Virus record (IMG/VR): IMGVR_UViG_3300037310_000082
Location: 1 to 35,500 of that record
Source: a virus
Taxonomy: Duplodnaviria > Caudoviricetes
Direction: 5' to 3' (one strand)
DNA length: 35,500 bases
Numbering within the stretch: the first letter of the stretch is position 1; every line of letters begins with the position of its first letter. This document shows positions 1 through 21,000 of the stretch, piece by piece. The notes under the pieces are model-generated. The model saw only the letters and a program-made list of their open reading frames with translations, did no database searches and was not told the DNA's origin. The translations under genes and the position numbers were made by a program.

Positions 1-7
1 GGGTAGG

Positions 8-409
8 TTGCGCGAGCCGCTGACATTGCGAGACTACTTTGCGGCGCAGGCGCCCGATGACATCCCCGACTGGTTCGTTATCGACGCTGACGAGCCGCTT
101 CTTCCGATGGTTCTCTCGACTAGCGCCGCACTCAACATGCAGCCGGGATACGCCGACCTGAGCGAGACGTTGAAGAAAGAACTGCGCGAATGGATGAATG
201 ACTGCTCGTGGGAATTGGACGAGCCTAATCAATCCACTATCGGCCGGGCCGCTCTGCGGGCTATCAAGGAAAGCGCTGACGCCCGAGACAGTGAGCGGCG
301 CGCCCGCAAAGAACGGCGCTACTTTGCTTGGCGCTGGTACTACGCAGACGCCATGCTGGCGCTGCGCTCAAACAACATCAACGAAGACAAGAAAGGAACT
401 GGCACTTGA
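8..409 (+). CDS. Phage hypothetical protein (LRDYFAA...Y..ADAML family), probably 5'-truncated by the window edge
   Basis: Motifs TLRDYFAAQA and YYADAMLALR recur in phage early proteins. The frame is open to the window start, and the stop overlaps the next TTG (TTGA 406-409). Confidence 0.7.
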   Translation: MREPLTLRDYFAAQAPDDIPDWFVIDADEPLLPMVLSTSAALNMQPGYADLSETLKKELREWMNDCSWELDEPNQSTIGRAALRAIKESADARDSERRARKERRYFAWRWYYADAMLALRSNNINEDKKGTGT

Positions 410-792
410 ACATTTGTGAAGACGTTTCCACGGCAGGCAACAAGTTGACCGCTGCGTGTCACGGGGCAGCCTTGCGCGCCGGCTGGTGGCATCGGCCCGA
501 TGGCAGCGACACGCGAGACAACCCGCTCACGTTCTCGAACAAGCTCATGCTGATTGTCAGCGAGGTCGCCGAAGCGATGGAGGGCGACCGCAAAAGCCTC
601 AAGGACGACAAACTGCCTCACCGTGACATGCGCGAGGTCGAGTTGGCAGACGCGGCCATCCGCATCTTCGATTTGGCCGGTGCCTACGGCTACAGCCTAG
701 GAAGCGCCATCGCCGAGAAGATGGCATTCAACGCGCATCGCGCAGATCACAAGCCGGAAGCGCGCGCTGCAGCCGGCGGAAAGGCGTACTGA
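406..792 (+). CDS. MazG-like all-alpha nucleotide pyrophosphohydrolase
   Basis: ExxE...ExxD pattern (SEVAEAMEG...EVELADAAIRIFDL) and C-terminal KMAFNAHRADH. Start placed at TTG 406 (AAGGA at 393-397, TTGA overlap) rather than 328. Confidence 0.8.
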   Translation: MNICEDVSTAGNKLTAACHGAALRAGWWHRPDGSDTRDNPLTFSNKLMLIVSEVAEAMEGDRKSLKDDKLPHRDMREVELADAAIRIFDLAGAYGYSLGSAIAEKMAFNAHRADHKPEARAAAGGKAY

Positions 793-1250
793 TGATTACC
801 CTGTTTGGCTACGCTCGCCTGGGCCGCGATGCAGAGCTTCGATACACCACGAACAACGATCCAGTGATGAACCTGTCGCTGGCTTTTAACTACGGTCGCA
901 AAGACGAGAGCGGCAAGAAGCCGGTGCAGTGGATTGATGCGAGCCTATGGGGCCAGCGCGCCGAAGCGCTGGCTGAGTACATGCTCAAGGGGCAGGGGCT
1001 TGTCGTCACGCTCGAAGACTTGCACATCGAGCAGTTCAAGGCGCGCGACGGCACACCAGGCAGCAAACTTGTCGGCCGCGTGAGCACCATTGAGTTTGCT
1101 GGCGGCCAGCCGCAGCAACAGGGCGCAGCGCCTGCACCAGCACCGCGCAACAGCAACAGCTACGCCGACGCCAAGAGCGGCAGGGCGCAGCCGCCAAAGC
1201 AGAAAACCGGATCGGGCTTCGACGACATGGACGACGACATCCCTTTCTAG
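792..1250 (+). CDS. ssb: Single-stranded DNA-binding protein
   Basis: OB-fold start (ARLGRDAELRYT), Gly/Gln/Pro linker and acidic tail DDMDDDIPF. TGATG overlap with the upstream gene. Confidence 0.95.
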   Translation: MITLFGYARLGRDAELRYTTNNDPVMNLSLAFNYGRKDESGKKPVQWIDASLWGQRAEALAEYMLKGQGLVVTLEDLHIEQFKARDGTPGSKLVGRVSTIEFAGGQPQQQGAAPAPAPRNSNSYADAKSGRAQPPKQKTGSGFDDMDDDIPF

Positions 1251-1793
1251 ATGACCATGAACCACACCGTTGAATCCATCCTTGGACGCTGCATCGAAGA
1301 AGGCGACTGCATGATCTGGACTGGCGCCACCACAAGCGGGAAAAGCCCTCTGCCGCTGGTGTCAGATCCACAGCGCCAGAACCGAGTGCGCCACGCGCGG
1401 CCGATGCTGTTTACCATGCTTGGCATGAAGCGGCCCAAGAACAAGCCGCTGACCATCGTGTCGTGCTGGAACTCGCTTTGTCTGTCGCCGAAGCACATGA
1501 AAGCGGCGAGCAAGTTCGAAGTTATTTCTGGTGCCGTGAGCGCTGGGCGCTATCCGATAAACCCGGCGCGCGAGGCGCGTCGCCGCGAGGTCGCGCGCGC
1601 GGCCGCGAAACTGAGCATGGACAAGGCGCGTGAGATTCGGCGCCGGTACTTTGCCGGTGAATCAACCATGGCCGCGCTTGCCGCGGACTACGGCGTTCAC
1701 TGCTCTTTGGTCAGCAAGATCATTCACAACAAAGCGTGGCTTGAAACAGCTGCCAACGCCAGCGTTTTCAACTACCGCGGCACCGCCGCATGA
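1251..1793 (+). CDS. Degenerate HNH-like domain plus C-terminal helix-turn-helix
   Basis: GDCMIWTGA...SCWNSLCLSPKHM resembles phage HNH CW.W.G...HxCxNxxCVNPxHL. The C-terminus AKLSMDKAREIR...LAADYGVHCSLVSKIIHNKAW is the usual HTH tail of these proteins. Confidence 0.7.
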   Translation: MTMNHTVESILGRCIEEGDCMIWTGATTSGKSPLPLVSDPQRQNRVRHARPMLFTMLGMKRPKNKPLTIVSCWNSLCLSPKHMKAASKFEVISGAVSAGRYPINPAREARRREVARAAAKLSMDKAREIRRRYFAGESTMAALAADYGVHCSLVSKIIHNKAWLETAANASVFNYRGTAA

Positions 1794-1812
1794 AAGGAGT
1801 CCCTTGAACACC

Positions 1813-2085
1813 ATGACCCTACCCAAGATCACCGGCTACCGCCAGCTTACCGAGGCCGAGGCCGCGCTCATCAACGAGGTCAAGGCCCACGCCGAAGCCA
1901 CGCGCGATCTGGTCAACCGTGTTGACCACTTCCTTGACAATCGAAGCCGCGATCCTCTGCCAGAAGGACACGCGCCACACTCTGTTGTTACCGAGCCGAT
2001 GCGCTGGCTGGCGATGGGTCGCGCCGACCTGCAAACCGGGTTCATGAAGATCACTCGCGCGATTGAGCAACCCACCACGTTCTAA
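1813..2085 (+). CDS. acb2: Acb2-family cyclic-oligonucleotide sponge (anti-CBASS)
   Basis: KITGYRQLT...INEVK...RWLAMGRADLQTGFMKITRAIEQPTTF matches the Acb2/Vs.4 pattern (KIxGYRxL, NxxK, RWLAIGKTDxQTGxMxxxRAIAQPxxF). AAGGAG at 1794-1799; start is ATG 1813 or TTG 1804. Confidence 0.88.
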   Translation: MTLPKITGYRQLTEAEAALINEVKAHAEATRDLVNRVDHFLDNRSRDPLPEGHAPHSVVTEPMRWLAMGRADLQTGFMKITRAIEQPTTF

Positions 2086-2097
2086 GGAAAGACCGAT

Positions 2098-2178
2098 ATG
2101 GCAAGACGATCGTTTCCAGACATCGTGCGCGACGTGCGCGGCGTTGGCGTGTTGATCCTGCTGGGGAGCCCGGAATGA
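2098..2178 (+). CDS. 26-aa mini-ORF MARRSFPDIVRDVRGVGVLILLGSPE
   Basis: TAAGGA upstream. It fills the gap between acb2 and the next gene, and its stop overlaps the next start (ATGA 2175-2178). Confidence 0.5.
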   Translation: MARRSFPDIVRDVRGVGVLILLGSPE

Positions 2179-2606
2179 CGCCCGCGGATCTGGCCGCACG
2201 GCTGCAAGGCCGCGCCTACGGCAGCGAAATGACGCTGGCCGAAGAAGCCGATGCGAAGGCCGCGGGCCTCGTTGTTGTGTTTGGCTACTCCGACGACAAC
2301 GCGGAACTGCGTGGCGCGATCTATGATGAAGTTGCCGCTTGGCGCGGCACGACGTTCCGCGTTAACGCTGACGGCTTGGTGCCAACATGGCCGCATGACG
2401 GTTACCTCGACGAAAGCGAGGCTGCGGCGTATTTCGACAAACTGCGCGCCGGCTTCAAGACGATCGAGGCACTGTGGGATGTCGGCGGCGGAGAGCCGTT
2501 GTGGACGTACAAGACCGACATACCGCACTCGGCGTTCATCGTCACTGACGAGGGAGAGCCGTTCTGCCGCGGCATCGTGTTTCGGCTTGAGGACGCGCGG
2601 CCGTGA
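2175..2606 (+). CDS. Conserved phage hypothetical protein
   Basis: LVVVFGYSDDNAELRGAIYDE and WTYKTDIPH..F...EGEPFCRGIVF are motifs of a widespread phage/prophage family of unknown function. Coupled by overlaps on both sides. Confidence 0.8.
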   Translation: MTPADLAARLQGRAYGSEMTLAEEADAKAAGLVVVFGYSDDNAELRGAIYDEVAAWRGTTFRVNADGLVPTWPHDGYLDESEAAAYFDKLRAGFKTIEALWDVGGGEPLWTYKTDIPHSAFIVTDEGEPFCRGIVFRLEDARP

Positions 2607-3046
2607 ACGAGCGCCTCAACTCTGTCACCACCGGCACTGTTGGCATCCTCAACGTCGGCGATGGAGACACCAAGCTGTCGTTTGACCCGAAGAACCCTGC
2701 CGAACGCATCCGAGCGGCGCGCATCGTGAAAGACATGATCCGCCGAGGCTATGCCCTGCTCATCGAGACAAAGGTTAAAGGCAAGCCGGTGTTTACACGC
2801 GCGCTCGATTTTGACGAGAACGTGTGCGAGTACGTCATCGCCGACTTTGACCCTGTGCAAGCCCGACAGGCCGACAACATTGAGGACAACATCCGTGCCC
2901 AAGAACAAGCAGAAGCTCAAGCGGACGCTGCGGCAGCAGATCCTGCGCCAAATGCGCCGAAGCGACGCGGCCGACCGCCAGGCAAGAAATTTGTCAAGGC
3001 TGAGTCAGTCCGCGCCGTCGCTGTGGCACGCAGCGCCGGAGGATGA
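2603..3046 (+). CDS. Hypothetical protein ending in C-terminal Gly-Gly (candidate ubiquitin-like modifier)
   Basis: GTG start with GAGGA at 2589-2593. Ends AGC GCC GGA GGA TGA (AVAVARSAGG-stop). Confidence 0.8.
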   Translation: MNERLNSVTTGTVGILNVGDGDTKLSFDPKNPAERIRAARIVKDMIRRGYALLIETKVKGKPVFTRALDFDENVCEYVIADFDPVQARQADNIEDNIRAQEQAEAQADAAAADPAPNAPKRRGRPPGKKFVKAESVRAVAVARSAGG

Positions 3047-3746
3047 GCGCGCCGCGCTTGAAGCGCATGACACGCACGCGGGGCTGCGCAACGCACTACG
3101 CCGCGTCGCCGCCGACCGCTCCGAATGGGCTGGTATTCCGATGCCGCTTGAAAGCGAGCGGCTTGTCATAGAGCCCGCTTACCCGAACGCCGCGGGCCTC
3201 ATGGCAATCGGCGCCAATCCGGAACCCGAAGGGCCGCCCAAATTTAAGGTGCGCAACGAGTTCAACTCGACGCGTTGGCGCTGCGACATCGTGGTGTTTG
3301 AGGAACACGACGGACGCATACGCCACGGCAAGGTGCCGGCGATTCATCACCTGACACAAGACCTACGCACGCTGGGCTGTGCAGACGCATGGGGCGTTGA
3401 GCAGGAAAGCGCAGCGCTTGACCTGTTGGCTTCGATGGTGCAGCACCGACAGTTCAGGCAGTACCTGCTGACCGGAATGTTCATCGAGTCAAGTCCACGC
3501 AGCGGCGTAACTTACTTGTTCCGCCGGCTCAAGCCCACGGTTGCGATGCACGCGGTCAAGGGCAATATGCGCGTGCTCTGCGCGCTGTGCTTGCACCCGA
3601 TTGCCTACTACAGCGGCTCTTGGGCCGGAGCGATGACGCCGACTGATGATGTGGTGGCGCATCTGTCGCTGATGCGCGGCGACGAGCCGATGTTTTGGCG
3701 TCGCGCCAACCAGCACGCGGCGTATCGACCGGAGGCTGGGCTGTGA
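2895..3746 (+). CDS. Hypothetical protein with LCLHP / PTDD / DE.xFW..AN motifs (partner of the diGly protein)
   Basis: Open frame with GC-rich third positions. The best start is GTG 2895 (GAGGA at 2882-2886), overlapping the upstream gene by 152 nt; alternatives are ATG 2952 and 3141. Confidence 0.75.
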   Translation: MPKNKQKLKRTLRQQILRQMRRSDAADRQARNLSRLSQSAPSLWHAAPEDERAALEAHDTHAGLRNALRRVAADRSEWAGIPMPLESERLVIEPAYPNAAGLMAIGANPEPEGPPKFKVRNEFNSTRWRCDIVVFEEHDGRIRHGKVPAIHHLTQDLRTLGCADAWGVEQESAALDLLASMVQHRQFRQYLLTGMFIESSPRSGVTYLFRRLKPTVAMHAVKGNMRVLCALCLHPIAYYSGSWAGAMTPTDDVVAHLSLMRGDEPMFWRRANQHAAYRPEAGL

Positions 3747-3808
3747 GCACCATCTCACTGAGCTTCTATCTTGTCGTTGGCCAGGCGCCGCAGGAGGTTT
3801 GGTTTTGA
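3743..3808 (+). CDS. 21-aa mini-ORF MSTISLSFYLVVGQAPQEVWF
   Basis: GGAGG at 3731-3735, GTGA overlap with the upstream stop and TTGA overlap with the downstream start. Confidence 0.5.
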   Translation: MSTISLSFYLVVGQAPQEVWF

Positions 3809-4359
3809 CTGTAATTGCCTGGGATGGAAAGACGCTTGCGGCCGACAAGGCGGCGACGTGGGTCGGCTTTCAAAACACCGTCACCAAGATCTACCGCGTA
3901 CCCGGCGGGCTGGTAGGGCTGTGTGGCGACAGCGATCGAGCGCTTGAACTGCTTGCGTGGTTTCGGGCCGGCAGAGACGTTGGCGCTTGGCCGCGAGACG
4001 GCCAGAACAGGGACGATCGCGGCGCCGCTGTGTTCATCGACGAGGCCGGTCGATGTTTCAGCTACGAAAAGACGCCCTACCCACAACACAACGAGCAGGC
4101 GTTCTACGCCATCGGCTCGGGCCGCGACTACGCGCTTGCGGCGATGCACCTGGGCCACGATGCGCGCAAGGCTGTTGAGGTCGCATGCGCGCTCGACAAC
4201 TGTTGCGGCCGCGGCATCGACACGTTGACCCTGTACACAAAGAAGCGGCAGCCGGCGCGCGCGGCCGGCGGTAACGCGCGCGCAGCGGCGCTTACGCCAC
4301 AGCGCCGAAGGGATATTGCCGCGAAGGCGGCAGCAACAAGATGGAAGAGCCGACCATGA
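3805..4359 (+). CDS. Proteasome-beta/HslV-like Ntn-hydrolase peptidase with a basic C-terminal extension
   Basis: (M)TVIAWDGKTLAAD, TKI, GLCGD, YAIGSG and AVEVACALD..GRG. AGGAGG at 3792-3797 lies 7 nt before TTG 3805, which would expose Thr at the N-terminus. Confidence 0.85.
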   Translation: MTVIAWDGKTLAADKAATWVGFQNTVTKIYRVPGGLVGLCGDSDRALELLAWFRAGRDVGAWPRDGQNRDDRGAAVFIDEAGRCFSYEKTPYPQHNEQAFYAIGSGRDYALAAMHLGHDARKAVEVACALDNCCGRGIDTLTLYTKKRQPARAAGGNARAAALTPQRRRDIAAKAAATRWKSRP

Positions 4360-4550
4360 CCACAGACATGATCGACCGCGACTACATCGCCAAGAAGCTC
4401 GACATTAGCAAGGAGGTGCTTCGCAAGACAGTCGAGGTTCGGCCAGACTTCCCCAAGCCGGCGCTGCGGCTGTCGCGCAAGACGGTGCGCTGGAACCGCT
4501 CTGACTTCGAACTGTGGCTGCAGAGGCAGGCGCAACAGGAGAAAGCGTGA
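4356..4550 (+). CDS. AlpA/excisionase-like winged-HTH protein
   Basis: IAKKLDIS...PDFPKPALRLSRKTVRWNRSDFELWL. ATGA overlap at 4356-4359. Confidence 0.8.
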   Translation: MTTDMIDRDYIAKKLDISKEVLRKTVEVRPDFPKPALRLSRKTVRWNRSDFELWLQRQAQQEKA

Positions 4551-4630: not shown

Positions 4631-4765
4631 ACGTCAAGAGGCCGAACAACAGCCCACGAACCTTCGCGGCACATGGGTTCGACTGCAGGCCAGCAGTCGG
4701 ATGGTAAAAGGCAAGCCGCCGGCACCTAGACAGAAACGCCCACTTCGGTGGGCGTTTCGCTTTGT
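4631..4765 (+). ncRNA. Candidate small structured RNA (about 130 nt)
   Basis: Lies between the putative promoter and a strong terminator, contains hairpin CGACTGC/GCAGTCG (4680-4699) and has no convincing ORF. Confidence 0.35.
4733..4765 (+). terminator. Intrinsic terminator hairpin
   Basis: Perfect 11-bp stem GAAACGCCCAC/GTGGGCGTTTC with a C(UUCG)G loop, followed by GCTTTG. Confidence 0.8.
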
Positions 4766-4836: not shown

Positions 4837-5064
4837 GTGCGCGCCCTTGCCGTCTTCCTGTTCCTCGCTGGCCTGGCCTGCTTCGCGCAGCCGTGGCTCG
4901 TGCCGCTGGGCGCGGGCGGGGTCATCGGCGGCGCTTTCCTGTTCGACCGCGCGGAGCGCGCCGGCCCGAGCAGCTTCGAGGCGCTGCTCGGGGCTGGCGT
5001 GATCCTGCTGGCCGCCGCCGGAGCGGTGGCTGTGGTCTTCGGCCTGGCTACTGCGCCTGCCTGA
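4837..5064 (+). CDS. Small membrane protein (75 aa, two or three TM segments), possibly from a leaderless mRNA
   Basis: Highly hydrophobic (MRALAVFLFLAGLACF...LLGAGVILLAAAGAVAVVFGL) with GC3-rich codons. CACAAT at 4825-4830 sits just upstream of the GTG. It is convergent with, and overlaps, the end of the 2569-aa gene. Confidence 0.6.
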   Translation: MRALAVFLFLAGLACFAQPWLVPLGAGGVIGGAFLFDRAERAGPSSFEALLGAGVILLAAAGAVAVVFGLATAPA

Positions 5065-8000
5065 CGGCCGGGTTCTGCATCACGCTCTTGGCTAGCGCGT
5101 TGCGCTTGAGTTGTAGCTCGTCAAGTTTCTCGCGCTTCTGCTCGGGCGTCAGCGTGCGATCCATGATGATCGCGTCGCGCGCCTTGGTCAAATTCCCAAG
5201 CCGGCTCGTGGCGGCGTCGAGCGCCGGCTTGATCGCGACCTTGCCAGCGTTTTCGCGCATCATCTTCATGGCTTCGGCGCTCTTGCCTTCGGCGCGCAGC
5301 GATCGGATCGTCGCGGCGATCTTGTCGGCCTCGCGGTCGAGTTTGTACAGGTCGGACTCGAACACCGTTGCGCGCGCCGGATCTTCGCGGTAGAACGCAC
5401 GCACCACCGGGTAGTCGTCCATCCGCAGCGCTGGACGCTGGGGTGCGTCTTCGAGCTTGCGCACCACCATGTCGCTCAAGGTCAGTGCGTACATGCCAGC
5501 CGTGCCTAAGTAGCCGTTGACGAGGTATTCGAGCTTCTTCGGGCTCAAGCCAAGGTTGTCGGCGGTGTCGCCCATCGCGCCGGCCACCACGCGCGCGGTG
5601 TCGCTGGTGCTGGCGTTGTAGCGCGCGCGCGGCAGCTTGTTCTCGTCGCCCTTGTTCTCGATTGGGCGCTCGCGGAAGCTGTCCCAATTGAAGTAGGCGT
5701 TCATCGCCGGCCGCACCGCCTGCGGCACCACGTCAATGGCAAGTTGATCGCGCACATTGGCCCACAAGCGGCTCAACGTCTTGTCTTCGGTGTCCAGGCC
5801 CTTGACTTGGCGGCCAATGCGCTCGGGGATGGTGGCGAAGAACACTCCAATCTCGAACGGCTTGGGCAGGCGGAAGTGTCTTTCGCCGATCTTGAAGTGC
5901 CAGTTCGCATCCTTGTCCCAATCTGGCAGTTCCTCGTACCAATCTTCGCCGTCGTTGGCCCAGGCCAGCAACATGCTTGCCGCGGCCATCATCATGCCCA
6001 CCAGCGCCAAGCGCTTGGGATCGGAGCGGCCCAGCCGGTACAGGCCCTGCACGCGGGCATTCAGGAACGGGATCACGTCGGCAAGCAGTTGATAGCCCGC
6101 CCACGATCCGCGCAGCCAGAAGTCCATGGAGTCCTTGCTCTCGTAGGCCGCGGCGGTTTTGTTTTTGGTGGTTTTCATCGTGGCCTCGTACACCGCTTCG
6201 CGGTTGGCGTTCTCGATCGCGTCGCCAATGTCGAAGTAGCTCTCGGCAAAACGCAGCACCTTGTCGCCCACGTAACCAGCAATGCCGTCCACCGTCGCCG
6301 CCGGCAGGCCCTTGGCGCGCAGCACGCGGCGAATCTCTTTGCCGGTGCCGGCCGGATCGTTGGCTTGCACGTTGCCGCTCTGAAAGCTCACGCCCGCAAA
6401 CAGCATCGCTTCGGCCGCGCCGCTCTCGTTGTAGCTCTTGATTGCGCCTTGCACACTCTTGAGCGGGTTGAAGCCGGGCGTGATTGCCTGAGCGGCCAAC
6501 GAGTCGCGCACCCAGTTGCGCAGCATGAACTCGGGCGTGGCTGTGACCGTGCGCGTGAGCAGCCGCTTGAAGAAGCGCATCACGTTCAGGCCCGGGAAGT
6601 CGAACGGCACAAAACTCGTCAGCGCGCGCAGCAGCAGCCGGTCGTTGACCTTGTAGAACTTGGCCTTGCCGCCCACCATCACGCGCACCACGCTCGGGTC
6701 GGACGGCGCCTGCAGCGCCCACATCTTCGCCATGCCGTCAAATGCTTCGTCTGGAATAGCGTCAAGCGTGGCCTCGGGCGTCCCGGCTTCGATCAGCAGT
6801 TTTCGGACTTGCGCCTTGGGCACGATTTCGGCCTTGAAGTCGTATCCGACCTTCTTGACGACACCAGTGCCTTCGAGCATCCGCACGGTCTTGCCGATCG
6901 CGTTGTTCTTCAAGCTCGCGTCGATGAGGCGCGAAAAGTTCATCAGCAGGTTTTCGATCGGGTCGTTCAGTGCGCTTTCGCCGCCGCGCAGCGTGCGGAT
7001 GCCGGACGACTGGCCTGCAAGTCCTTTGCGCCCGGTCGGGCTGAACGCAGCGCGCTCGTCGATCTGCCGGTAGAACGGCACGTAGTCGGCGTGATCCCAC
7101 GCCGCGCGGCCCGCAGGGTCGATCAGGCCCGCGGCCTGCGCCACGTCAAGCACGCTGCGCTTGAAGTCGGCGTACTCGGCGGAGACCTTCTTGAAAAGGT
7201 CTTCGCGGCCTTTGCCGCGGCCCTGCAGCGCAGCAATGTCGGCGTCGCTCAGGTTGTTCTCGCGGCCCTCGCGCTTCAAGCGCGCGGCGCGGTTGCCGAT
7301 CATCCAGGCGAAGAAGTCGGTCGGGTCTTTGCCCAGCGGCTCAAGGATCGCCAGCAGGCCCTTGGTGCCGGGCTTCTTCTCAAGATGCTGGCCGTTGGCC
7401 GCCCACTGCGCTTGGCCGTGCAGCAGCAGCGCGCGCATCACGCCGCTGGTTGCGCCGTTGGCAAGGCGCGCGGTAATGTAGGGGTTTTGGTCAATGCCCA
7501 GGTCGCCCAGGTAGCGTTTCACTGCGCGGCGGATGCCGTAGAACTGGTCTAGCGCGCCGCTGCGCGCCTCGGCCAGCAGCTCGTTGCTGTCGCGCAGCGC
7601 GGCCAGCGCGCGGCCAAAGCCTAAGCGGATCGACGTTCCCAGCGAGCGCTTGCCGCCCAGGCCGGCGCGCTCAAAAGCGCGTTCTTCGTCGGGGGTGAGG
7701 CTGAACCGGATGTCGGGGTTTGTCGGGTTGAACCTCTTGCCACCATCATCGAACGACGTGAACTGCGACCGCGCCGAGAAAGCGCTCATCGCGTCCACCA
7801 CAGCCGCGCGCGCTCCGTCGATGTCTTTCAAGTAGGCTGCGCTGCCCAGCGGGCGTGTGCCCATGACCCACTGGCTCACGTCTTCGAGCAGCCGCATTAC
7901 AGCGTCGGCGATGCGTTCGAGCAGCGTGCGATCCTTCGCCGCCAAGTCGCGCCAGAATTGCTTGTCGTTGAAGAAGTCGCCAACAATGTCGGCGTTCAGT

Positions 8001-11000
8001 TCTTCTAGCCACTGCAAAGGCATCTGCATGCCTTGGTTTGCGTAGCGCGCTTGCAGGGCGTCGCGGTAGCGAAACTCGCCGGTACGAAGTTGCGTGAGGC
8101 GGTCGTTTAGTTCGTGGTACAGGCGAGGGTCTTGGCTGCGAAGCTGGTGCAGCAGTTCGTGGCCCAACACGGCCATCAACGGCATGCGGCTGTCCGCATT
8201 GAGGTAGATCAGGCCGGGCCGTTTGGCCCACACCACACCGTTGAAAATCGCCTTGTCGGCGAAGCGGACGAAGACTACTTCTCGCCCGAACAGATCTCGC
8301 GCGACGCGAGATACCGTCTCAAGTTCTCCTGGCCCGCGTCTGACTGGTGAGCTTCCTGCATCAACAGCGTCAAGCACAACGGCTCGTCCGAGGTCGCGGG
8401 TGAGTTCTTCGGCAAGCTCGGCAACAGCGTCGCGGTGTCGCTGGCTGGGTTCGGGTGCGATTCCACGGGCCGGAGTATCGGCCCGGCCGTCACTTGAGTC
8501 AACACTGAACAGGGGCAGGCCGCGTGCGGTTTTTCCGTTCTGTTGTGCAATTTCGCCATCGAAGGTAGGTGCGTCTTCGGAGATGCTGAAAGCCACATCA
8601 CCACCACGCTGGTCAAACGGCGGGAAGCGCTCGTTGAGCTTTGCTAGGTGCTCCAATCGGATGAAGAACCCGCCGTTCTTCTTCCATGTGTACGGGTCAA
8701 TCGACTGCGCCTGTTCCTTAGTCAGATCGGTGCGGATCACGCCGCGGATCGTCTTGCCCTTGGCGGTGACGTGCTCCACGATGTCGGCGCCCTGCTGCTG
8801 CGCCATCTCGGCGCCGGCAGCCTGCGCCTGCTTCTTCTCGGCCTTTGCTTCGGCGCGCGCTGCGACTGGCGGCGGCGCGGCGGCTTGCGCATCTTCCTGC
8901 TCCGCGGTCATGCGGCGCGGTGGCACTTCCATGTTCTCCAAGCGGTCGAACAGTTCGTTGATGTCGGCCGCGTTGGTCAGGTCGCGCACACCTTGCTGCT
9001 GCGGCGCGCGCGCAGCGTCGGTCTGTTTCTCGATGACGACGATGCGCGTCATGACGCCAGTGCCTGCGCGCTCAAAGGTCGCGGTCGGCAGGCGGATGTC
9101 GGCCACCAAGTGCAAGTCGGCGGCGGGGCGGTACTGCTCGTCGCGCTTGCCTGTCGGCTGCACGGCCTTGATGGATTGACCTGTCACCATCGACACGGCA
9201 CCGCGAAACTCCGGCGCATCCGCCTTGACCAGCGGGTTGCCATCGCGCCAGCCTGTCACCGTGCCGGTCGGCGCCCAGCTCGCGCGCGACTCGATCTTGT
9301 CGCCCTTGTAGATCGGCGTGGCCTTGCCGTCGATGTCGATGGTTCCCAGCGGCTTCACGGGCCTGTCTTGCGCCTCGTAGAACCACTTGTCGAACTTCGC
9401 ATCCGCGCTCGGGCCTGTAGGGATCAGTGCCACGATGCGGCCGCCGTCTCGAAGGTGCGTCGCGGCCTTGGCGAGATGGTCAATCGCCGTGCGGCCGGCC
9501 GTGCCGAAAGGCGGATTCATCACGATGCCGTCGTACTTGTTGACGACGTTCAGATCCTCGAATCGGCTGTCCACGATCTTGCCGTCGAACGACAGCGCCA
9601 GGCGCGCGCGCAGTTGCATGCTCGGCTCAACGGCCGTGCGCGTCACGTTGTCGGGCAGCCAGCGCGCAATCGCGCCGTGGCCGGCGCTGGGTTCAAGCCC
9701 ATCCTCGCCGCCGCGCAGGTTCAGCCACTGCACCATCTTCAAGCCCACGGGCTCGGGCGTGGCGAAGTAGTCGGCGCCTTCCTGCGCCTTGGTCTTACTG
9801 TTCTTCTTCTGCGTGCCGTAGTAGAACGACTTGGCGCGGTCGTACTCGGTGATGACGTTTGCCAGCGCGCGGTCGCGCTGTTTGCCGCCGGTGCCCTCGC
9901 CTTCGTGGCCGGGCGGGTAGGCGTCGCTTTCCTCGTAGCCGGTGATGAAGGCGTCTAGCAGCGCGCGCGCGTGTTCTCCTTGGCCCAAGTTCTCGGCTTC
10001 GCTGGCGCGGCGTGCGATGGTCTGCGCAAAGGCCCAGCGCTCCCAGGTCGTGCCGGTGTTCAGGTAGCGCATCATTGCGTTGCTCGCCTGGCCCACGCGG
10101 TAGATGCGGCCTTCCTGCTGAATCGTCATGGTTGGCTGCGTCGGCAGCCCGAGGTTGAACAATACGCGCGGGTACTTGCCGGTTGTGTCGTGGCCACTCC
10201 AACCCTTGTTCTTTGCGCTCTGCACCAGCGCCACAATCGGCCCTTGGTTGTCGTCGTTGAAACGCTTGTAGCGCTCCAACAGATCGCGTGGCTTCTCGTC
10301 GCCGTTGATGAGCAGCACGTCGGGGAACTCTTGCGTGAAACGATCAATGGGTGACAGCAGGCCCGACAGCGCATCACCCGAGGTCAGGTCGGGGAACTTG
10401 GCCTTGAAGCGGGCAAGTGCTTCGTTGAACTGCTGCGACTCGCGCGCTTTCGTGGCCTGAATCTCATCGCCGCCAATACCGGCATCGATCACGCTTTGCG
10501 GCACCGCATCCATGCTGAACGGGTTGCGCGCGCCGCCCTTTTTGAAGTCGTGGAACACCACCACCTTGCGGCCCAGCGCCAGATGCTGCTTGATGATCGA
10601 CACCGACTCCTTGGCCTTGATCGCTTCGAGCAGGTAGCGGCGCACGAGATGGCCGTCGGTGCCGTAGAGCCGATCGTTGATCGCCGAAGACAGCAGTTTC
10701 ATGCCTTGCGATTTGTCTTTGCCATCGGCCTGGCGCTCGGCGTCTTTCTGTTGCGCGATCCAATCTAGCGCCGCGTCGATGCGGTTGCCGATGGCCGATT
10801 CCACCAGCACGAACTTGCGGTCGTAGTCGGCCTCGACTTCAAGCATGCGGCCAGACAGCGCGCCTTGCTTCTTGAGCCAGCCATTGAACTGACGCTGCAT
10901 CAGGCCCGAATCCACCCTGGCGTCGGGCTTGGTGAGTTTGCCGACACGCATCGAGTAGCCGAAATGCTCGATGAAGAACTGTTGCCAGCCGTTCGGCACG

Positions 11001-12757
11001 TTGTAGCCGGTGCGCTCGACCTTCGGGTAGTCGAACAGGTAGCCGTTGGCCCAATCGACGGTGTACTCGTAGGCAAATGGCGTGGCCGACAGCGCGAGCA
11101 GGCGCGTGCGCGCGGCGCCTTGCTTGGCCGCCACGTCGGACTCGACGGCTTCCTGCTTCTGGCGCAGAGACTTGGAAAGTGCGTCGGCGCGCGCCTGCAG
11201 CTTCGTGTTCTCGGCGCGCGCTTCAGGGGTGCCGGCCTTGGTGTTGGCGGTGATCTTTTCGCCGAGCTGGCGCAGCGCCTCGATCTCGTCGGCATGCAAC
11301 ATCGAGTGGCGCGTGTAGGCATAGTCAGGGTGGCGCGTGATCGCGCGCACGGTTGCCAGCGCCCGCGTCGCCTCGCCGTCCTTGCCCTGCATGAGTTGGT
11401 GCGCCTCGTCGGTTGTCACCAGATCCCATTCGCGCCGCACCAGCGCTAGGTTGTCGCCCGCGTTGGCGTAGGTCGTGATGACGATGCCTTTTCCGGCGTC
11501 TTTCGTGTTGGACAGCGGGGCGACAGTGAGGCCCAGCGCCTTGGCCGACTCGATCCAGTCGGCCATGATCTTCGCGTCTGGAACAAGGATGAGCTGATTG
11601 GTCTTGCCGCGGCGCGCGAAGCGCTTGATCACACCCAAGCCGGTGAAGGTCTTGCCGGTGCCCGTGCCGTTTGTGAACAGCATGCCGTAGCCGTCCGGCT
11701 TGTCGAGTCGCGCCTCGGCTTTCTGCACATCCTCTTGCTGCTCGGGCAGCAGATACGGCAGCGTGGCTCGGATGTTGTCGATGCCGGGCTGCACGGCGAT
11801 CGACTCGGCGGCGCGCTGTGCTTGGCGCTTCTGCGCGTCTGTTACGCCTCGTTCAGCAGCGCGCGCAACTTGTTCTGTTGCGACGGCATCAGACGGTGCT
11901 CGTTGCTCGCCAGAATCAACGCCTCGTTGATCGAAGTCAGTTCCGGCATCGAACTCCGAAGGTCTGTCCGTCCGCTCGTCTCGATCCAGGCGCTGATCGC
12001 CTCGTTCTCCGCCAGCAGTGGCGCCACCAGCAGGTACGCCCGGATCGTTCGCGGGTCGGCTCCTCTGGCTTCGAGCCTGGCTTCCAGTTCCTGCAGCGCC
12101 GCGTCGAGCGCCGGCCCCTGCTCCATCGGAAACAGACGGCGCCACGTCGGAGTCCGCAGCTTCTGCGTCGCTGCGATTTCGTTCCAGATTGGCGTCGGTG
12201 TCGAGTGCATCGTCAGTGCCATTATCCGCCTGCACGGCATCAATGTCGAACGCCTCCACTTCGGCGGCACCGGACATCTCGCCAGCCAGGCCAGCCAGCC
12301 GTGGGTCGTAGCGTGCGGCCATGTACCAGCTCTTGAGGTACGGCCGCACCGCCTCGCCCATGTCGGCCAGCATCGCTCGGGCAAAAGCAGCGAACGTGCG
12401 CGCGCCCTTCTCGATGTGGTAGCCGGCCAGGATGAGCCCGTCCATCATCGTCTCGGGGTCGATGCCGGACTGCAGGCGGCCGATCTTCTTGCGCAAACGC
12501 TCGCGCGCGGCGGCGGCCATGTCGTCAGTGAAGATCGTGTTTCCGCTAGGCGCGGCCGGCGCCGCCACAGCGGGCTCGGCCGGCGCATCACCAAGCAGGG
12601 AGCGCACCGCCGCAAGTTGCTCGCTCACCGCCTGCACGGCCGCTTCATGCGGGCTCTTGCCTTCACTGCGCAGCGCTCGCGCACGGTCAAGAATCGCCGA
12701 TTTGTCCGCGGGGTCGATGGCGTCTCCCGCTTTCTTCAAGCATGTCGTCAGGCTCAT
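5048..12757 (-). CDS. Giant polyvalent (DarB-like) virion protein: SF2 helicase, N6-adenine DNA methyltransferase, HExxH metallopeptidase-like domain and LPD38-like C-terminus
   Basis: Helicase motifs GTGTGKT, TTDEAH, LSATPF and QQEGRIYR. MTase motifs FATPEP, LEPSAGHG and VMNPPF. GHELLH. LPD38-like YEELPDWDKDANW...RLPKPFEIG. Confidence 0.9.
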   Translation of the reverse strand: MSLTTCLKKAGDAIDPADKSAILDRARALRSEGKSPHEAAVQAVSEQLAAVRSLLGDAPAEPAVAAPAAPSGNTIFTDDMAAAARERLRKKIGRLQSGIDPETMMDGLILAGYHIEKGARTFAAFARAMLADMGEAVRPYLKSWYMAARYDPRLAGLAGEMSGAAEVEAFDIDAVQADNGTDDALDTDANLERNRSDAEAADSDVAPSVSDGAGAGARRGAAGTGSQARSQRSRPANDPGVPAGGATAGGERGDQRLDRDERTDRPSEFDAGTDFDQRGVDSGEQRAPSDAVATEQVARAAERGVTDAQKRQAQRAAESIAVQPGIDNIRATLPYLLPEQQEDVQKAEARLDKPDGYGMLFTNGTGTGKTFTGLGVIKRFARRGKTNQLILVPDAKIMADWIESAKALGLTVAPLSNTKDAGKGIVITTYANAGDNLALVRREWDLVTTDEAHQLMQGKDGEATRALATVRAITRHPDYAYTRHSMLHADEIEALRQLGEKITANTKAGTPEARAENTKLQARADALSKSLRQKQEAVESDVAAKQGAARTRLLALSATPFAYEYTVDWANGYLFDYPKVERTGYNVPNGWQQFFIEHFGYSMRVGKLTKPDARVDSGLMQRQFNGWLKKQGALSGRMLEVEADYDRKFVLVESAIGNRIDAALDWIAQQKDAERQADGKDKSQGMKLLSSAINDRLYGTDGHLVRRYLLEAIKAKESVSIIKQHLALGRKVVVFHDFKKGGARNPFSMDAVPQSVIDAGIGGDEIQATKARESQQFNEALARFKAKFPDLTSGDALSGLLSPIDRFTQEFPDVLLINGDEKPRDLLERYKRFNDDNQGPIVALVQSAKNKGWSGHDTTGKYPRVLFNLGLPTQPTMTIQQEGRIYRVGQASNAMMRYLNTGTTWERWAFAQTIARRASEAENLGQGEHARALLDAFITGYEESDAYPPGHEGEGTGGKQRDRALANVITEYDRAKSFYYGTQKKNSKTKAQEGADYFATPEPVGLKMVQWLNLRGGEDGLEPSAGHGAIARWLPDNVTRTAVEPSMQLRARLALSFDGKIVDSRFEDLNVVNKYDGIVMNPPFGTAGRTAIDHLAKAATHLRDGGRIVALIPTGPSADAKFDKWFYEAQDRPVKPLGTIDIDGKATPIYKGDKIESRASWAPTGTVTGWRDGNPLVKADAPEFRGAVSMVTGQSIKAVQPTGKRDEQYRPAADLHLVADIRLPTATFERAGTGVMTRIVVIEKQTDAARAPQQQGVRDLTNAADINELFDRLENMEVPPRRMTAEQEDAQAAAPPPVAARAEAKAEKKQAQAAGAEMAQQQGADIVEHVTAKGKTIRGVIRTDLTKEQAQSIDPYTWKKNGGFFIRLEHLAKLNERFPPFDQRGGDVAFSISEDAPTFDGEIAQQNGKTARGLPLFSVDSSDGRADTPARGIAPEPSQRHRDAVAELAEELTRDLGRAVVLDAVDAGSSPVRRGPGELETVSRVARDLFGREVVFVRFADKAIFNGVVWAKRPGLIYLNADSRMPLMAVLGHELLHQLRSQDPRLYHELNDRLTQLRTGEFRYRDALQARYANQGMQMPLQWLEELNADIVGDFFNDKQFWRDLAAKDRTLLERIADAVMRLLEDVSQWVMGTRPLGSAAYLKDIDGARAAVVDAMSAFSARSQFTSFDDGGKRFNPTNPDIRFSLTPDEERAFERAGLGGKRSLGTSIRLGFGRALAALRDSNELLAEARSGALDQFYGIRRAVKRYLGDLGIDQNPYITARLANGATSGVMRALLLHGQAQWAANGQHLEKKPGTKGLLAILEPLGKDPTDFFAWMIGNRAARLKREGRENNLSDADIAALQGRGKGREDLFKKVSAEYADFKRSVLDVAQAAGLIDPAGRAAWDHADYVPFYRQIDERAAFSPTGRKGLAGQSSGIRTLRGGESALNDPIENLLMNFSRLIDASLKNNAIGKTVRMLEGTGVVKKVGYDFKAEIVPKAQVRKLLIEAGTPEATLDAIPDEAFDGMAKMWALQAPSDPSVVRVMVGGKAKFYKVNDRLLLRALTSFVPFDFPGLNVMRFFKRLLTRTVTATPEFMLRNWVRDSLAAQAITPGFNPLKSVQGAIKSYNESGAAEAMLFAGVSFQSGNVQANDPAGTGKEIRRVLRAKGLPAATVDGIAGYVGDKVLRFAESYFDIGDAIENANREAVYEATMKTTKNKTAAAYESKDSMDFWLRGSWAGYQLLADVIPFLNARVQGLYRLGRSDPKRLALVGMMMAAASMLLAWANDGEDWYEELPDWDKDANWHFKIGERHFRLPKPFEIGVFFATIPERIGRQVKGLDTEDKTLSRLWANVRDQLAIDVVPQAVRPAMNAYFNWDSFRERPIENKGDENKLPRARYNASTSDTARVVAGAMGDTADNLGLSPKKLEYLVNGYLGTAGMYALTLSDMVVRKLEDAPQRPALRMDDYPVVRAFYREDPARATVFESDLYKLDREADKIAATIRSLRAEGKSAEAMKMMRENAGKVAIKPALDAATSRLGNLTKARDAIIMDRTLTPEQKREKLDELQLKRNALAKSVMQNPAVRQAQ
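11842..12222 (-). CDS. Nested +1-frame gene (about 126 aa) inside the 2569-aa gene
   Basis: Helical, protein-like sequence with GC-ending codons, while the host frame reads as a disordered A/D/G/R linker. ATG at 12222 or 12210. Confidence 0.6.
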   Translation of the reverse strand: MALTMHSTPTPIWNEIAATQKLRTPTWRRLFPMEQGPALDAALQELEARLEARGADPRTIRAYLLVAPLLAENEAISAWIETSGRTDLRSSMPELTSINEALILASNEHRLMPSQQNKLRALLNEA

Positions 12758-17531: not shown

Positions 17532-18013
17532 GCGACTCTCTCAATGGTCATCACGCGGTCAGGCCCTCCATAGGTGTTCGGTACGCGTACTTCCCACTTT
17601 GCGCCCTTCTGACTCTGCGCGGGCATGACTTGCACGACTGGCGCAGGGATCTCAGGTGGCGTCGGCATTACAGCCTCAACCGTGATTGGAGTTGGCTCGA
17701 CCTTGACCGTAACGTTTGGAGCCGCAACGCTCACTTGAGGCGAGGCCACGTTGACGACTGGCGCAGCCTCGCGAATTGCCGCAGCAAGTCGATCAACTGC
17801 CGCCGCGGTCGCGTTCGCGCCGACAGCCTCGATCATTTCTGCAAGTGCTGTTTCCTGCGCGCTCAACATGCGCTCGATGCCAGCCATGCGAGCCGGGTCA
17901 GCAAGGTCGGCGATTCCGGCCTCCACTGCGCTGAAAAGCCTTTCCATCGACTCTTGCTGCTTGGACAAGCGCGAGAGAATTGCGGCTGAAAACTTGGCGT
18001 CTCCTTCGCTCAT
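17528..18013 (-). CDS. Hypothetical protein with a helical N-terminus and PVVNV/APNVTV repeats
   Basis: ATGA overlap with the 1302-aa gene stop. Pro-Val repeats. Confidence 0.75.
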   Translation of the reverse strand: MSEGDAKFSAAILSRLSKQQESMERLFSAVEAGIADLADPARMAGIERMLSAQETALAEMIEAVGANATAAAVDRLAAAIREAAPVVNVASPQVSVAAPNVTVKVEPTPITVEAVMPTPPEIPAPVVQVMPAQSQKGAKWEVRVPNTYGGPDRVMTIERVA

Positions 18014-21000
18014 GATGTCAGGCAGTCAAGGAGGGATTGAAGAACAGACGCACGCTTGCGCAGGGCGATGAGCTTTTCGGTGTTGGCGGTGCGCGGGGCG
18101 CGCGGCGCAACCTGCGGCGTCACCTTTGTCTGCTTCGACTGATCCCATCCGGCACGCCAGAGTTGCTTGTCGGTGTTGCTCAGGTCTTGCGGCGGGTCAC
18201 GCGGATCGCCGCGCTGGCCGGCCTCGCGGCCAAGTTGGCGCGCGTCAGCGGTCGGCTCGTCGAACATGCCGCGCTGTCCCGCAGCAGCCTCCACATCGGC
18301 GGCGCGGTCGCTGCCGGTGAGCGTGAACTCGTCGCGCTCGGCATCGGCGCGCGCCTTGTCGGCGAGGCGCTTCTGCTCGGCGCGGTCGGCCTTGTCGGCG
18401 GCGGAAGCGCGCTCGGCGTCAGCGCGCAGAGACTCGGCGGTCGGTGCCGTCAGCCCTTCTTGGGCGTCAGGTTGCGCCGCAGCGCTTCGAGCTTGAGCAG
18501 GCGCGTCCGATCCTTCGCCGGCATCTTGGCGAGCTTCGTCAGCGCCTTCTTGCGCCGCGGCGTCATCGGCTGCTTGAGCGATTTCACGTAGAGCTTCCTT
18601 GCTGGTCGGGGGCCAGTCGAACGCGATGTCATCGTCGTCCACGGCCTGCATGTCGGCCGCCGTCAGGTCGTTCTCGGCCATGATAGCCGCACGCTCGGCC
18701 TCTGCTTCGGCGGCGGCCTCGGCGTCAAGCGCTTGGTAGTGCTCGCGTTCGGCTTCGGCCGCCGCCTCGGCGTCGGCCAGTTCCTCATCCTGTGTCTTGG
18801 CCTCGACGCGGTTCAGGGCGTCCTGAATGATCGACTGCACCTTGAACTCGTAGCTGCCGCTCTCGACGGTGCCTGGCGGCAGATAGCCGCGCGCTTCCAG
18901 CGTTTCGGCCATCTCGGTAAAGTCGCTGCTTCCGCCAGCGCGGAACAACTTGCCAATGCCGGGGATCATCGGGTTGCGCCACTGCGTCACACGCCTGCCG
19001 TTCTTGCCGATTCGCTTTGTCTCAAAGCGGTGGCTCAGGTCGGCGATCAAGCTCGGGCTCAGTCCGCGCAGATCCTTGGAAAGCACCGCCAACAGGCGGC
19101 TTCCCATGACGGTGTGCGGATGCGCCTTTGGCGCGACGGACTTGGCCCTGTCCGCCGCGCTGCCGCTTAGTACGGCTTGGGCTTGCCGGTCTTGCCCGGC
19201 TTCTTGGCTGGGGCTTTGGCCTTTTTCATCGGCGGCTCCTTGGCTGGTGATCACGGCCGCGCTTGTGGGCGGGGCGGCCGACGCCGCAACAGATGGTGCA
19301 GCGGCAACAGGCGCGGACACTCTCGAAACCGCGGGCTCGGACGCACCCGCACGCGCGCCCTCGCCTTCTGCCTGCGCCGCTGCATTCTTTGGCGGGTAGA
19401 AGTTGGTCTTGTTGCCAACGGCGCCAGCGGCGCGGATGGCTTTCTTGGCGTCCAGATCCGACACGCCAGCGTCGAGTTCGATCGGCTGGCCGCTGTCATA
19501 GTCAAGCAGCGGCTTGCCCTCCATGTAGGGCGTCACCGTGCCGCTGTCGTTGGTGCGCAGCTCGACATCGGTGGTAGCGTTGGGCGTGCGACCGGCGCGA
19601 GCAATGATGCGCTGCGGTGCGGCCGGCGGCGCGGCGCTCAGTGCATTGTTGCTGACTGGTTGTCCGGGTCGAATTCCATCAACACCTTCGCCGCGAACAC
19701 CTTGTTCATCAGCGATGCCGGCATCGTCAGCCAGTCGTCGAGCGTCGTCGCGTAGCAGTTCGCTTCCAGCGCTTCGTCCGGCGTCAGCAGACCGAGCGAT
19801 TCCATCGCCTGCAGTTCTGGCAGCAATTCCTCCATTCAGGATCCCCAGCGGCTTGCGGGCTTCCTTGCTGGACGCCCACGCCTTAAAAGCGTTGATCGGC
19901 ATGCTGGTGATTGCGCCCAGCCCCCGCCAGTCGTCAGCGTAGTTGCTTCGGTAGATGGCCTCTGCCTCGGCTTGGTCAGCAGCGCCAATGATCGCCTTGG
20001 CCTCGTCGTACTTGCCAGTCCTGGGGTCAATCTGATCGACCACAAACACCGGGCCGGCATACTCCGGCGGCGTGCCCGGCTTGATGAACACGTCCACATG
20101 GTCGCCGTCCTTGGCTTCGCTGCCTCGCACATAGCCGTAGTGCGCGCGCATCGTGGTTTCCCACGGGTTGCCATCAGGATCGACGCCGCGCCGCACCGAG
20201 CCTTCGGGGTTCTCGATGCTGATATCCATGCCGGCAATGCGCGCGCGTCCGACCTTGTAGTTGCCGGCCTGCTTTTGGCCTTCGGTCGGCTCGCTCAGGT
20301 CGTTCTCGGGCGACGTGGCTGCGTCGTGCGCGGCGTCGTCGATCGGTGTGCGCGGCGGCATGTCGGCCAAGCCGGTTCCGTCATCTTGCATGCCGGCCAA
20401 GTCTTCAATCGTGGCAAGCAGCTCTTGAGGGGGCTGCAGTGTTTCACGCGGAACCAAATAAGGGTTTGAGGATGTTGCGGGAGATGGCGGCTGTTCGTCG
20501 AGCGCGGCCAGCGCGTCGTCTGTGGCTTGAGGGCCAACCACTCCGCGGTTTCGCAGCGCGGCGATCGCGCGCTTCATGAAGCCTGGCGCGTCGTTGATGG
20601 GCACGCGCTCGGACTGCTCCTTGATCGCTTTGACCGCCTTGCTCGGGATGCCAAACTCGGCGGCCATGTCATCCAGTCGCGCAACCGCGGCCTTCCGGCG
20701 CTCGATCGACGACAAAGCGCGCGCCGCGGCACCGCCGCCGCCGGCCGACGCGGTCATGATCACGGTCTGCGCGGCCGTCTGAACGGCGTCATCGATGTAC
20801 TCGTCCAGCGTCATATCCGGCCGCGTGCCTGCACGTCCGGTCTTGTCGTACAGGTTCTGGATCGCCAGCGTGACCTGTTCCTCGCCCTGCTGCTTGAGCG
20901 CTTCTTTCAGCACGGCGGCCGGCCGCATGCCAGTTCTGCTTGCCATGCCGCCCACCAGCCGCGCCAGACCAGGCATGCCGATGCGCTCGCCGATGAACTC

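Follow-up and report, generated by a model that had tools for sequence, protein, structure and literature searches.

A conserved two-gene phage cassette encoding a Gly-Gly-ended protein and a predicted cysteine enzyme, with a possible ubiquitin-like function

The Bil, Bub, and CBASS (cyclic oligonucleotide-based antiphage signalling system) Cap2 conjugation systems, as described in PMC11601596, are owned by the host, and each has its own E1; Bub provides a precedent both for a diverged E2 with a nucleophile-x-His motif and for an E1 lacking a catalytic Cys. Here, two overlapping open reading frames (ORFs) of a tailed-phage record, IMGVR_UViG_3300037310_000082, were compared with these and other systems: ORF1, which encodes a protein ending in Gly-Gly (the GG protein), and ORF2, which encodes a predicted cysteine enzyme (the partner). 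The window analysed is the entire virus record (35.5 kb; completeness 44% by CheckV). The two genes form a conserved phage cassette and are nearly always adjacent. The pair is real and, as far as the literature was searched, undescribed, and a ubiquitin-like mode of working can be inferred for it; no prior description was found in full-text literature and bioRxiv, where supplement tables of comparative-genomics papers could still hold the families.

In common with Type I Bub (the BubAB fusion of a ubiquitin-like protein, Ubl, with E2; BubCD, JAB-E1; and BubE), a small Gly-ended protein is paired with or fused to a putatively E2-type protein, the nucleophile-x-His spacing is the same, and the genes reside on mobile DNA; furthermore, the BubAB precursor is cut directly after Gly, a position comparable to the GG-Met junction of the fusions described below (PMC11601596). 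In contrast to Bub, the partner has Cys where BubB has Ser and gave no match to a small Prok-E2_E profile, and the cassette lacks a linked E1, JAB, or BubE and is phage-borne, whereas Bub belongs to the defence loci of hosts. Two other systems, Bil (BilA Ubl, BilB E2, BilC JAB, and BilD E1) and CBASS Cap2/Cap3, share with the cassette a C-terminal Gly handle, a cysteine enzyme, and a phage-host setting, but possess an E1 and a JAB of their own and act on behalf of the host (PMC11601596), whereas the cassette is carried by phages and its operon contains neither enzyme. The cassette falls outside Bil, Bub, and Cap2-CBASS. The absence of an E1/ThiF gene from the window, stated in an earlier note on this DNA, was borne out: a profile of seven BubCD proteins, with limited reach for distant JAB domains, gave no E1/JAB match in the window and one match at E <0.01 among 180 loci (L117, E1 part only). 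Two further comparisons draw on PMC1779556. In ThiS/ThiF and MoaD/MoeB, the last strand is likewise followed by GG, but the GG protein is longer, with an extra hairpin and linker, and has a dedicated Cys partner of another family. The lambdoid Ubl TAPI, with the JAB-NlpC protein TAPK, is a known phage-encoded ubiquitin-like protein with a dedicated enzyme, but these are tail genes and involve a JAB domain, whereas the present pair consists of early accessory genes and includes an unrelated Cys partner.

Conservation of the pair was assessed by anchoring loci on the partner and then reading their neighbours in viral, genome, and metagenome sets, which partly overlap and whose counts are not independent; none of the conclusions depends on the unpublished genomes G895 and G431. 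A free-GG gene lies beside the partner in 56 of 59 viral contigs, the remaining three being partner remnants only. The same arrangement was found in 24 of 31 genome contigs (32 loci were returned, of which L130, a spurious weak match, was excluded), along with two GG ends followed by a short tail, one deletion remnant, one partner remnant, and three loci with missing upstream sequence. The best 80 of 262 metagenome contigs comprise 54 with free GG, four fusions, one interrupted gene, two cut by the contig end, and 19 with too little upstream sequence. In the reverse search, the partner was found in 36 of 37 GG-anchored loci, the sole miss being a fragment. Five loci (L046, L053, L060, L108, and L128) are decayed remnants with partial partner genes and no GG gene, one of them a deletion that fuses the beginning of the GG gene with the partner.

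ORF1 is predicted to have a beta-beta-alpha-beta-beta-beta core, a variable low-complexity linker, and a last strand followed by RSAGG; its C-terminus, AVAVARSAGG and then stop, is as previously noted. A total of 818 homologues were found at E 0.001 or better, and GG closes all 120 sequences examined, namely the window protein and the best 119 of these homologues. All four Gly codons are used for the last residue in 79 GG-ending loci (GGC 33, GGA 22, GGT 13, and GGG 11), as are all three stop codons in 82 ORF1 genes (TGA 35, TAA 25, and TAG 22); therefore, the GG end is selected at the protein level, far above chance, and this variety rules out an artefact of ribosome binding or gene overlap. 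GG is retained also where the two genes do not overlap or stand in swapped order. Such an end would also suit a ThiS/MoaD-type sulfur carrier, thiocarboxylated by a host ThiF/MoeB, with the partner acting as a sulfurtransferase on DNA, tRNA, or a small molecule. The hydrophobic strand and small-residue tail do resemble those of MoaD/ThiS (PVTGG 23/28, AVGGG 4/28), and the partner carries a basic N-terminal arm, but no further gene family beside the pair is shared by more than 7 of the 59 viral loci, none of those being a sulfur-handling gene, and comparisons with ThiS/MoaD and BubA profiles gave no match, though the ThiS-versus-BubA control failed as well. A sulfur carrier thus appears improbable.

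The motifs previously noted in ORF2 (LCALCLHP, PTDD, and DExxFWxxAN) are all present, the last as DEPMFWRRAN. A basic N-terminal arm, coded inside ORF1, and a three-stranded meander precede a catalytic-looking core composed of a helix, a four-stranded meander ending in Cys232-x-His234-Pro, and a helix starting with Pro-Thr-Asp251-Asp. The suggestion that a Cys of the partner could serve as nucleophile withstood the test of invariance: in the main clade, Cys232, His234, and Asp251 are found in 406, 407, and 406 of 408 proteins, respectively, and Cys232 is conserved in 22 of 22 partners sampled from both the main and a distant clade. Cys229 and position 248 both vary and were therefore discarded as candidate nucleophiles, and a JAB reading of CxHP...PTDD received no support from fold searches. 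The partner family forms 633 clusters at 50% identity, and copies occur in assemblies that carry the labels Proteobacteria, Planctomycetes, Verrucomicrobia, Elusimicrobia, Dehalococcoidia, Clostridia, and CPR (candidate phyla radiation).

The two genes are also entwined at the DNA level. ORF2 starts 152 nt into ORF1 in the +1 frame, a relation kept in 65 of 82 loci, and in 46 of 61 loci of such frame geometry there is a Shine-Dalgarno-like site with ATG or GTG 60-260 nt into the GG gene, the internal start usually yielding a short basic arm on the partner. The overlap (window 2895-3046) is conserved at about 110-200 nt: the ORF1 linker and GG tail are dual-coded, their +1 frame encoding the Arg/Lys-rich partner arm, for which a separate start and Shine-Dalgarno-like site are present.

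In six proteins (P0245, P0258, L169, L181, L197, and L205), the GG protein and the partner are joined in a single frame. The first two are single-member clusters for which only the protein, and not the DNA, was seen; in the other four, whose DNA was seen, there is no stop and no Shine-Dalgarno-like run ahead of the internal ATG. Despite mutual identities of only 43-64%, all are joined at (S/T)AGG-MS without indels, followed by a fixed-length motif ending in Glu-x-x-Asn. All six belong to a single clade of 9 leaves, weakly supported (0.69), in a tree of 143 sequences (near-duplicates removed from 160), which makes a common origin, with the junction retained ever after, probable. By analogy with BubAB, the constant junction looks like that expected of a precursor cut after GG. 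Downstream of the fusion copy at L169, a putative TROVE/Ro60-like protein (2444-3922), so labelled from its sequence pattern, adjoins a terminase gene.

The reading favoured here, with a probability of roughly 0.4, is that the partner acts as an E2-like transferase, charged via a host E1-type enzyme with the GG protein as its ubiquitin-like tag. A free carboxylate requires activation before it can become a thioester, and the cassette lacks an E1; for these reasons, charging by a host enzyme is favoured. The tag would fold as a beta-grasp variant, and its free GG would be adenylated by a host ThiF/MoeB-family enzyme or by a Bil/Bub-type defence E1. The adenylate would then be attacked by Cys232 to give a thioester, in a manner comparable to the Ser-x-His of BubB in Bub, and Asp251 and its neighbours may help an incoming amine so that the tag is passed to target lysines. 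In the fused clade, the tag would first have to be freed by a GG-specific protease, as BubCD acts on BubAB. The position of the cassette among early accessory genes makes it likely that it serves, early in infection, to take over the host or to jam ubiquitin-like defence, with context suggesting both the target and an anti-defence role.

A number of results weigh against this reading. Neither the ORF1 nor the ORF2 model has a Foldseek match in PDB at E 0.001 or better, and all VIA Z scores are below 5, so that the hints of a beta-grasp and of a UBC fold are weak. The GG protein model is poor (predicted local distance difference test, pLDDT, 65), and its VIA scores place papain-type barrels (4.6) and Sm/Hfq (4.5) level with or above beta-grasp (3.9). 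Comparison of the partner with Prok-E2_E/BubB by hhalign (eight Prok-E2_E sequences, small profiles) gave a probability of at most 3%, and Cys232 closes strand 4 of the meander rather than occupying the canonical E2 site. The best covariation pair (z 5.7) is barely above the shuffled maximum (5.4). In the distant clade, whose homology to the GG protein was confirmed by profile comparison (probability 96%, E 2.7e-9), the 33 ends read PG in 31, AG in one, and PS in one (Gly last in 32 of 33), one further locus also ends in PS, and the GG-like protein of a 595-kb phage ends in VAGG; the last Gly is therefore nearly, but not absolutely, kept. In addition, no peptidase gene lies near the fused copies in the scan of neighbours across 180 loci, and among four small CPR-type assemblies with intact pairs (3 of 401 genomes searched of that phylum, plus G005), all incomplete, ThiF exceeds the cut-off in just one.

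Pfam, PHROGs, and NCBIfam gave no meaningful match for either ORF, PDB sequence searches with four alignments returned nothing significant, and a Prok-E2_C search returned nothing usable; ESM Atlas yielded unnamed viral clusters only, BFVD a single significant match to an unnamed 268-aa protein, and a second VIA run for the partner matched its small N-terminal meander throughout. A likeness of the partner to BubB past the nucleophile (Asp-Asp-x-x-x-His-Leu), noticed by eye, was unconfirmed by hhalign. The GG protein resembles a papain-type barrel weakly but has no conserved His, and the idea of a split papain was rejected on that account. In the distant clade, L001 (Virus Rctr197k, KX853510; 4252-7426) encodes a GG-like protein of two tandem domain copies, with an apparent second, more diverged partner paralogue 1.2 kb downstream and CRISPR repeat regions annotated on both sides. 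All five loci read from large distant-clade phages (L131-L135) have, upstream of the pair and one to four genes away from it, a gene for a small zinc-finger-type Cys/His-rich protein, which might be an adaptor.

The lack of a significant match to any Ubl or E2, the equal standing of Sm/Hfq and barrel folds with beta-grasp, and the PS termini of the distant clade would all suit a heterodimer formed non-covalently, such as a regulator or an inhibitor of a host enzyme, in which GG packs into a tight groove and Cys, His, and Asp bind metal or are structural; obligate pairing alone could also produce fusions. Such a complex is nevertheless unlikely: the fusions have kept an exact, indel-free junction across considerable divergence, most distant-clade proteins would be left without either His ligand of such a metal site, and the GG that nearly all split copies keep free at their terminus would exceed the usual demands of packing.

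Alternatively, the partner may be a GG-specific cysteine peptidase or transpeptidase (Cys232-His234-Asp251) that cleaves its own tag off the fused precursor and either deconjugates a decoy tag put on by a host defence E1/E2 or ligates without ATP via a GG-X bond. The near-invariant Cys, His, and Asp of the main clade, the short tails beyond GG at L116 and L125, and the GG-Met fusions without a neighbouring JAB are consistent with this proposal, which is also favoured by the CPR-type pairs, mostly without ThiF over the cut-off, and by the fused clade with no peptidase alongside. These CPR-type pairs (L127, L129, L137, and L138) are intact and stand among housekeeping-type genes, with no obvious phage genes within the few kb read. 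However, His234 is absent from four of six distant-clade partners, which retain Cys and Asp, so that transfer fits better than hydrolysis; no papain-like or other protease fold was listed for the partner in fold searches; and most copies end in a free GG, which offers no leaving group and so no apparent energy for ATP-free ligation. A peptidase or transpeptidase is accordingly doubtful, if tenable. Its boldest form, a self-sufficient ATP-free phage conjugation in which one cysteine enzyme takes the tag by attacking a GG-X peptide bond and joins it to proteins of host or phage without E1, is decidedly unlikely; the fused clade would be its plainest case, and the intact pairs in small genomes where ThiF was not found also fit. 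Covalent chemistry of some kind at GG is probable, though well short of assured.

The earlier note had described three tightly coupled genes, with ORF3 as the third. This holds for the layout of the window, where ORF3 starts 58 nt after the ORF2 stop, but among relatives the association is confined to ORF1 and ORF2. ORF3 is indeed a Thr1 N-terminal nucleophile (Ntn) hydrolase (phrog_1040 'peptidase HslV family', E 1.3e-33); it begins with Met-Thr, so that Thr would be first once Met is removed. Its adjacency and shared orientation could suggest a ligase or deconjugase of the module, similar to Connectase, which is characterised by a two-helix S3/S4 insertion and by ligase activity. However, 151 of 180 loci, the window included, extend at least 1 kb past the partner on its downstream side, and the 150 that are not the window, the closest relative among them, all lack such a hydrolase beside the pair; the one further match, at E 0.016, is on the opposite strand. 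The hydrolase is also common in phages without the pair, matching 376 annotated phage records versus 1 for the partner in the same collection. ORF3 is a bystander unlinked to the module; given this missing linkage and wide occurrence, a Connectase-like role is unsupported, and a three-gene module is barely credible. By size and distribution, ORF3 is likely the phage proteasome homologue PPH (PMC8665760; PHROG 1040), with which it shares an N-terminal Thr1, proteasome-beta homology, a length of about 140 aa (roughly 145 residues in ORF3), and a tailed-phage host; the likeness is by description rather than by alignment to the PPH sequences of that paper, and ORF3 differs in having an extra basic tail. 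Within this tail (36 residues; window 4251-4359) there is an AAGG, and the tail gave a match to the beginning of phrog_2384 (E 5.6e-4).

The cassette lies in a one-direction run of early accessory genes (bases 1-4550) in the window annotation (Table 1), and the remainder of the window holds virion genes on the opposite strand, including DarB-like giant proteins. Two of these, of 2569 aa and 1302 aa (5048-12757 and 18010-21918, minus strand), have PHROG matches to DarB-like, methyltransferase, and endolysin-family proteins and are probably virion-delivered antirestriction proteins. A neighbouring Acb2 gene had been taken to fit an anti-defence role; the gene itself was confirmed, but Acb2 is present in just 2 of 179 non-window loci of the pair and is thus unlinked to the module and tells little about its function.

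Table 1. Features of the cassette and its surroundings in the 35.5-kb window
Feature	Position	Strand	Remarks
ORF1, diGly protein, candidate ubiquitin-like tag	2603-3046	+	147 aa; GTG start overlaps upstream TGA
Gly-Gly-stop, putative conjugation handle	3038-3046	+	GG in 120/120; synonymous codon spread
ORF2, partner, predicted cysteine enzyme	2895-3746	+	283 aa
Codons for Cys232-Leu-His234, predicted nucleophile motif	3588-3596	+	Cys 406/408, His 407/408
ORF3, Thr1 Ntn hydrolase	3805-4359	+	TTG start, GGAGG 7 nt upstream; basic C-terminal tail
Acb2/Tad1-family anti-CBASS sponge	1813-2085	+	PF24729, E 9.7e-13
MazG-like pyrophosphatase, single-stranded DNA-binding protein (SSB), HNH-like gene	within 1-4550	co-oriented with module	early accessory genes
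Excisionase-like gene	within 1-4550	co-oriented with module	early accessory genes
Terminator-like hairpin	4733-4758		after early accessory block

If true, a phage-borne pair of tag and enzyme without an E1 would mean that phages turn ubiquitin-like chemistry on their hosts, and the partner, for which no structural match reached significance, would represent a new family of enzymes. The GG-Met fusions constitute a natural single-protein form in which self-cutting can be set against the action of host factors, and the ATP-free version, if true, would supply a new protein ligase tool.
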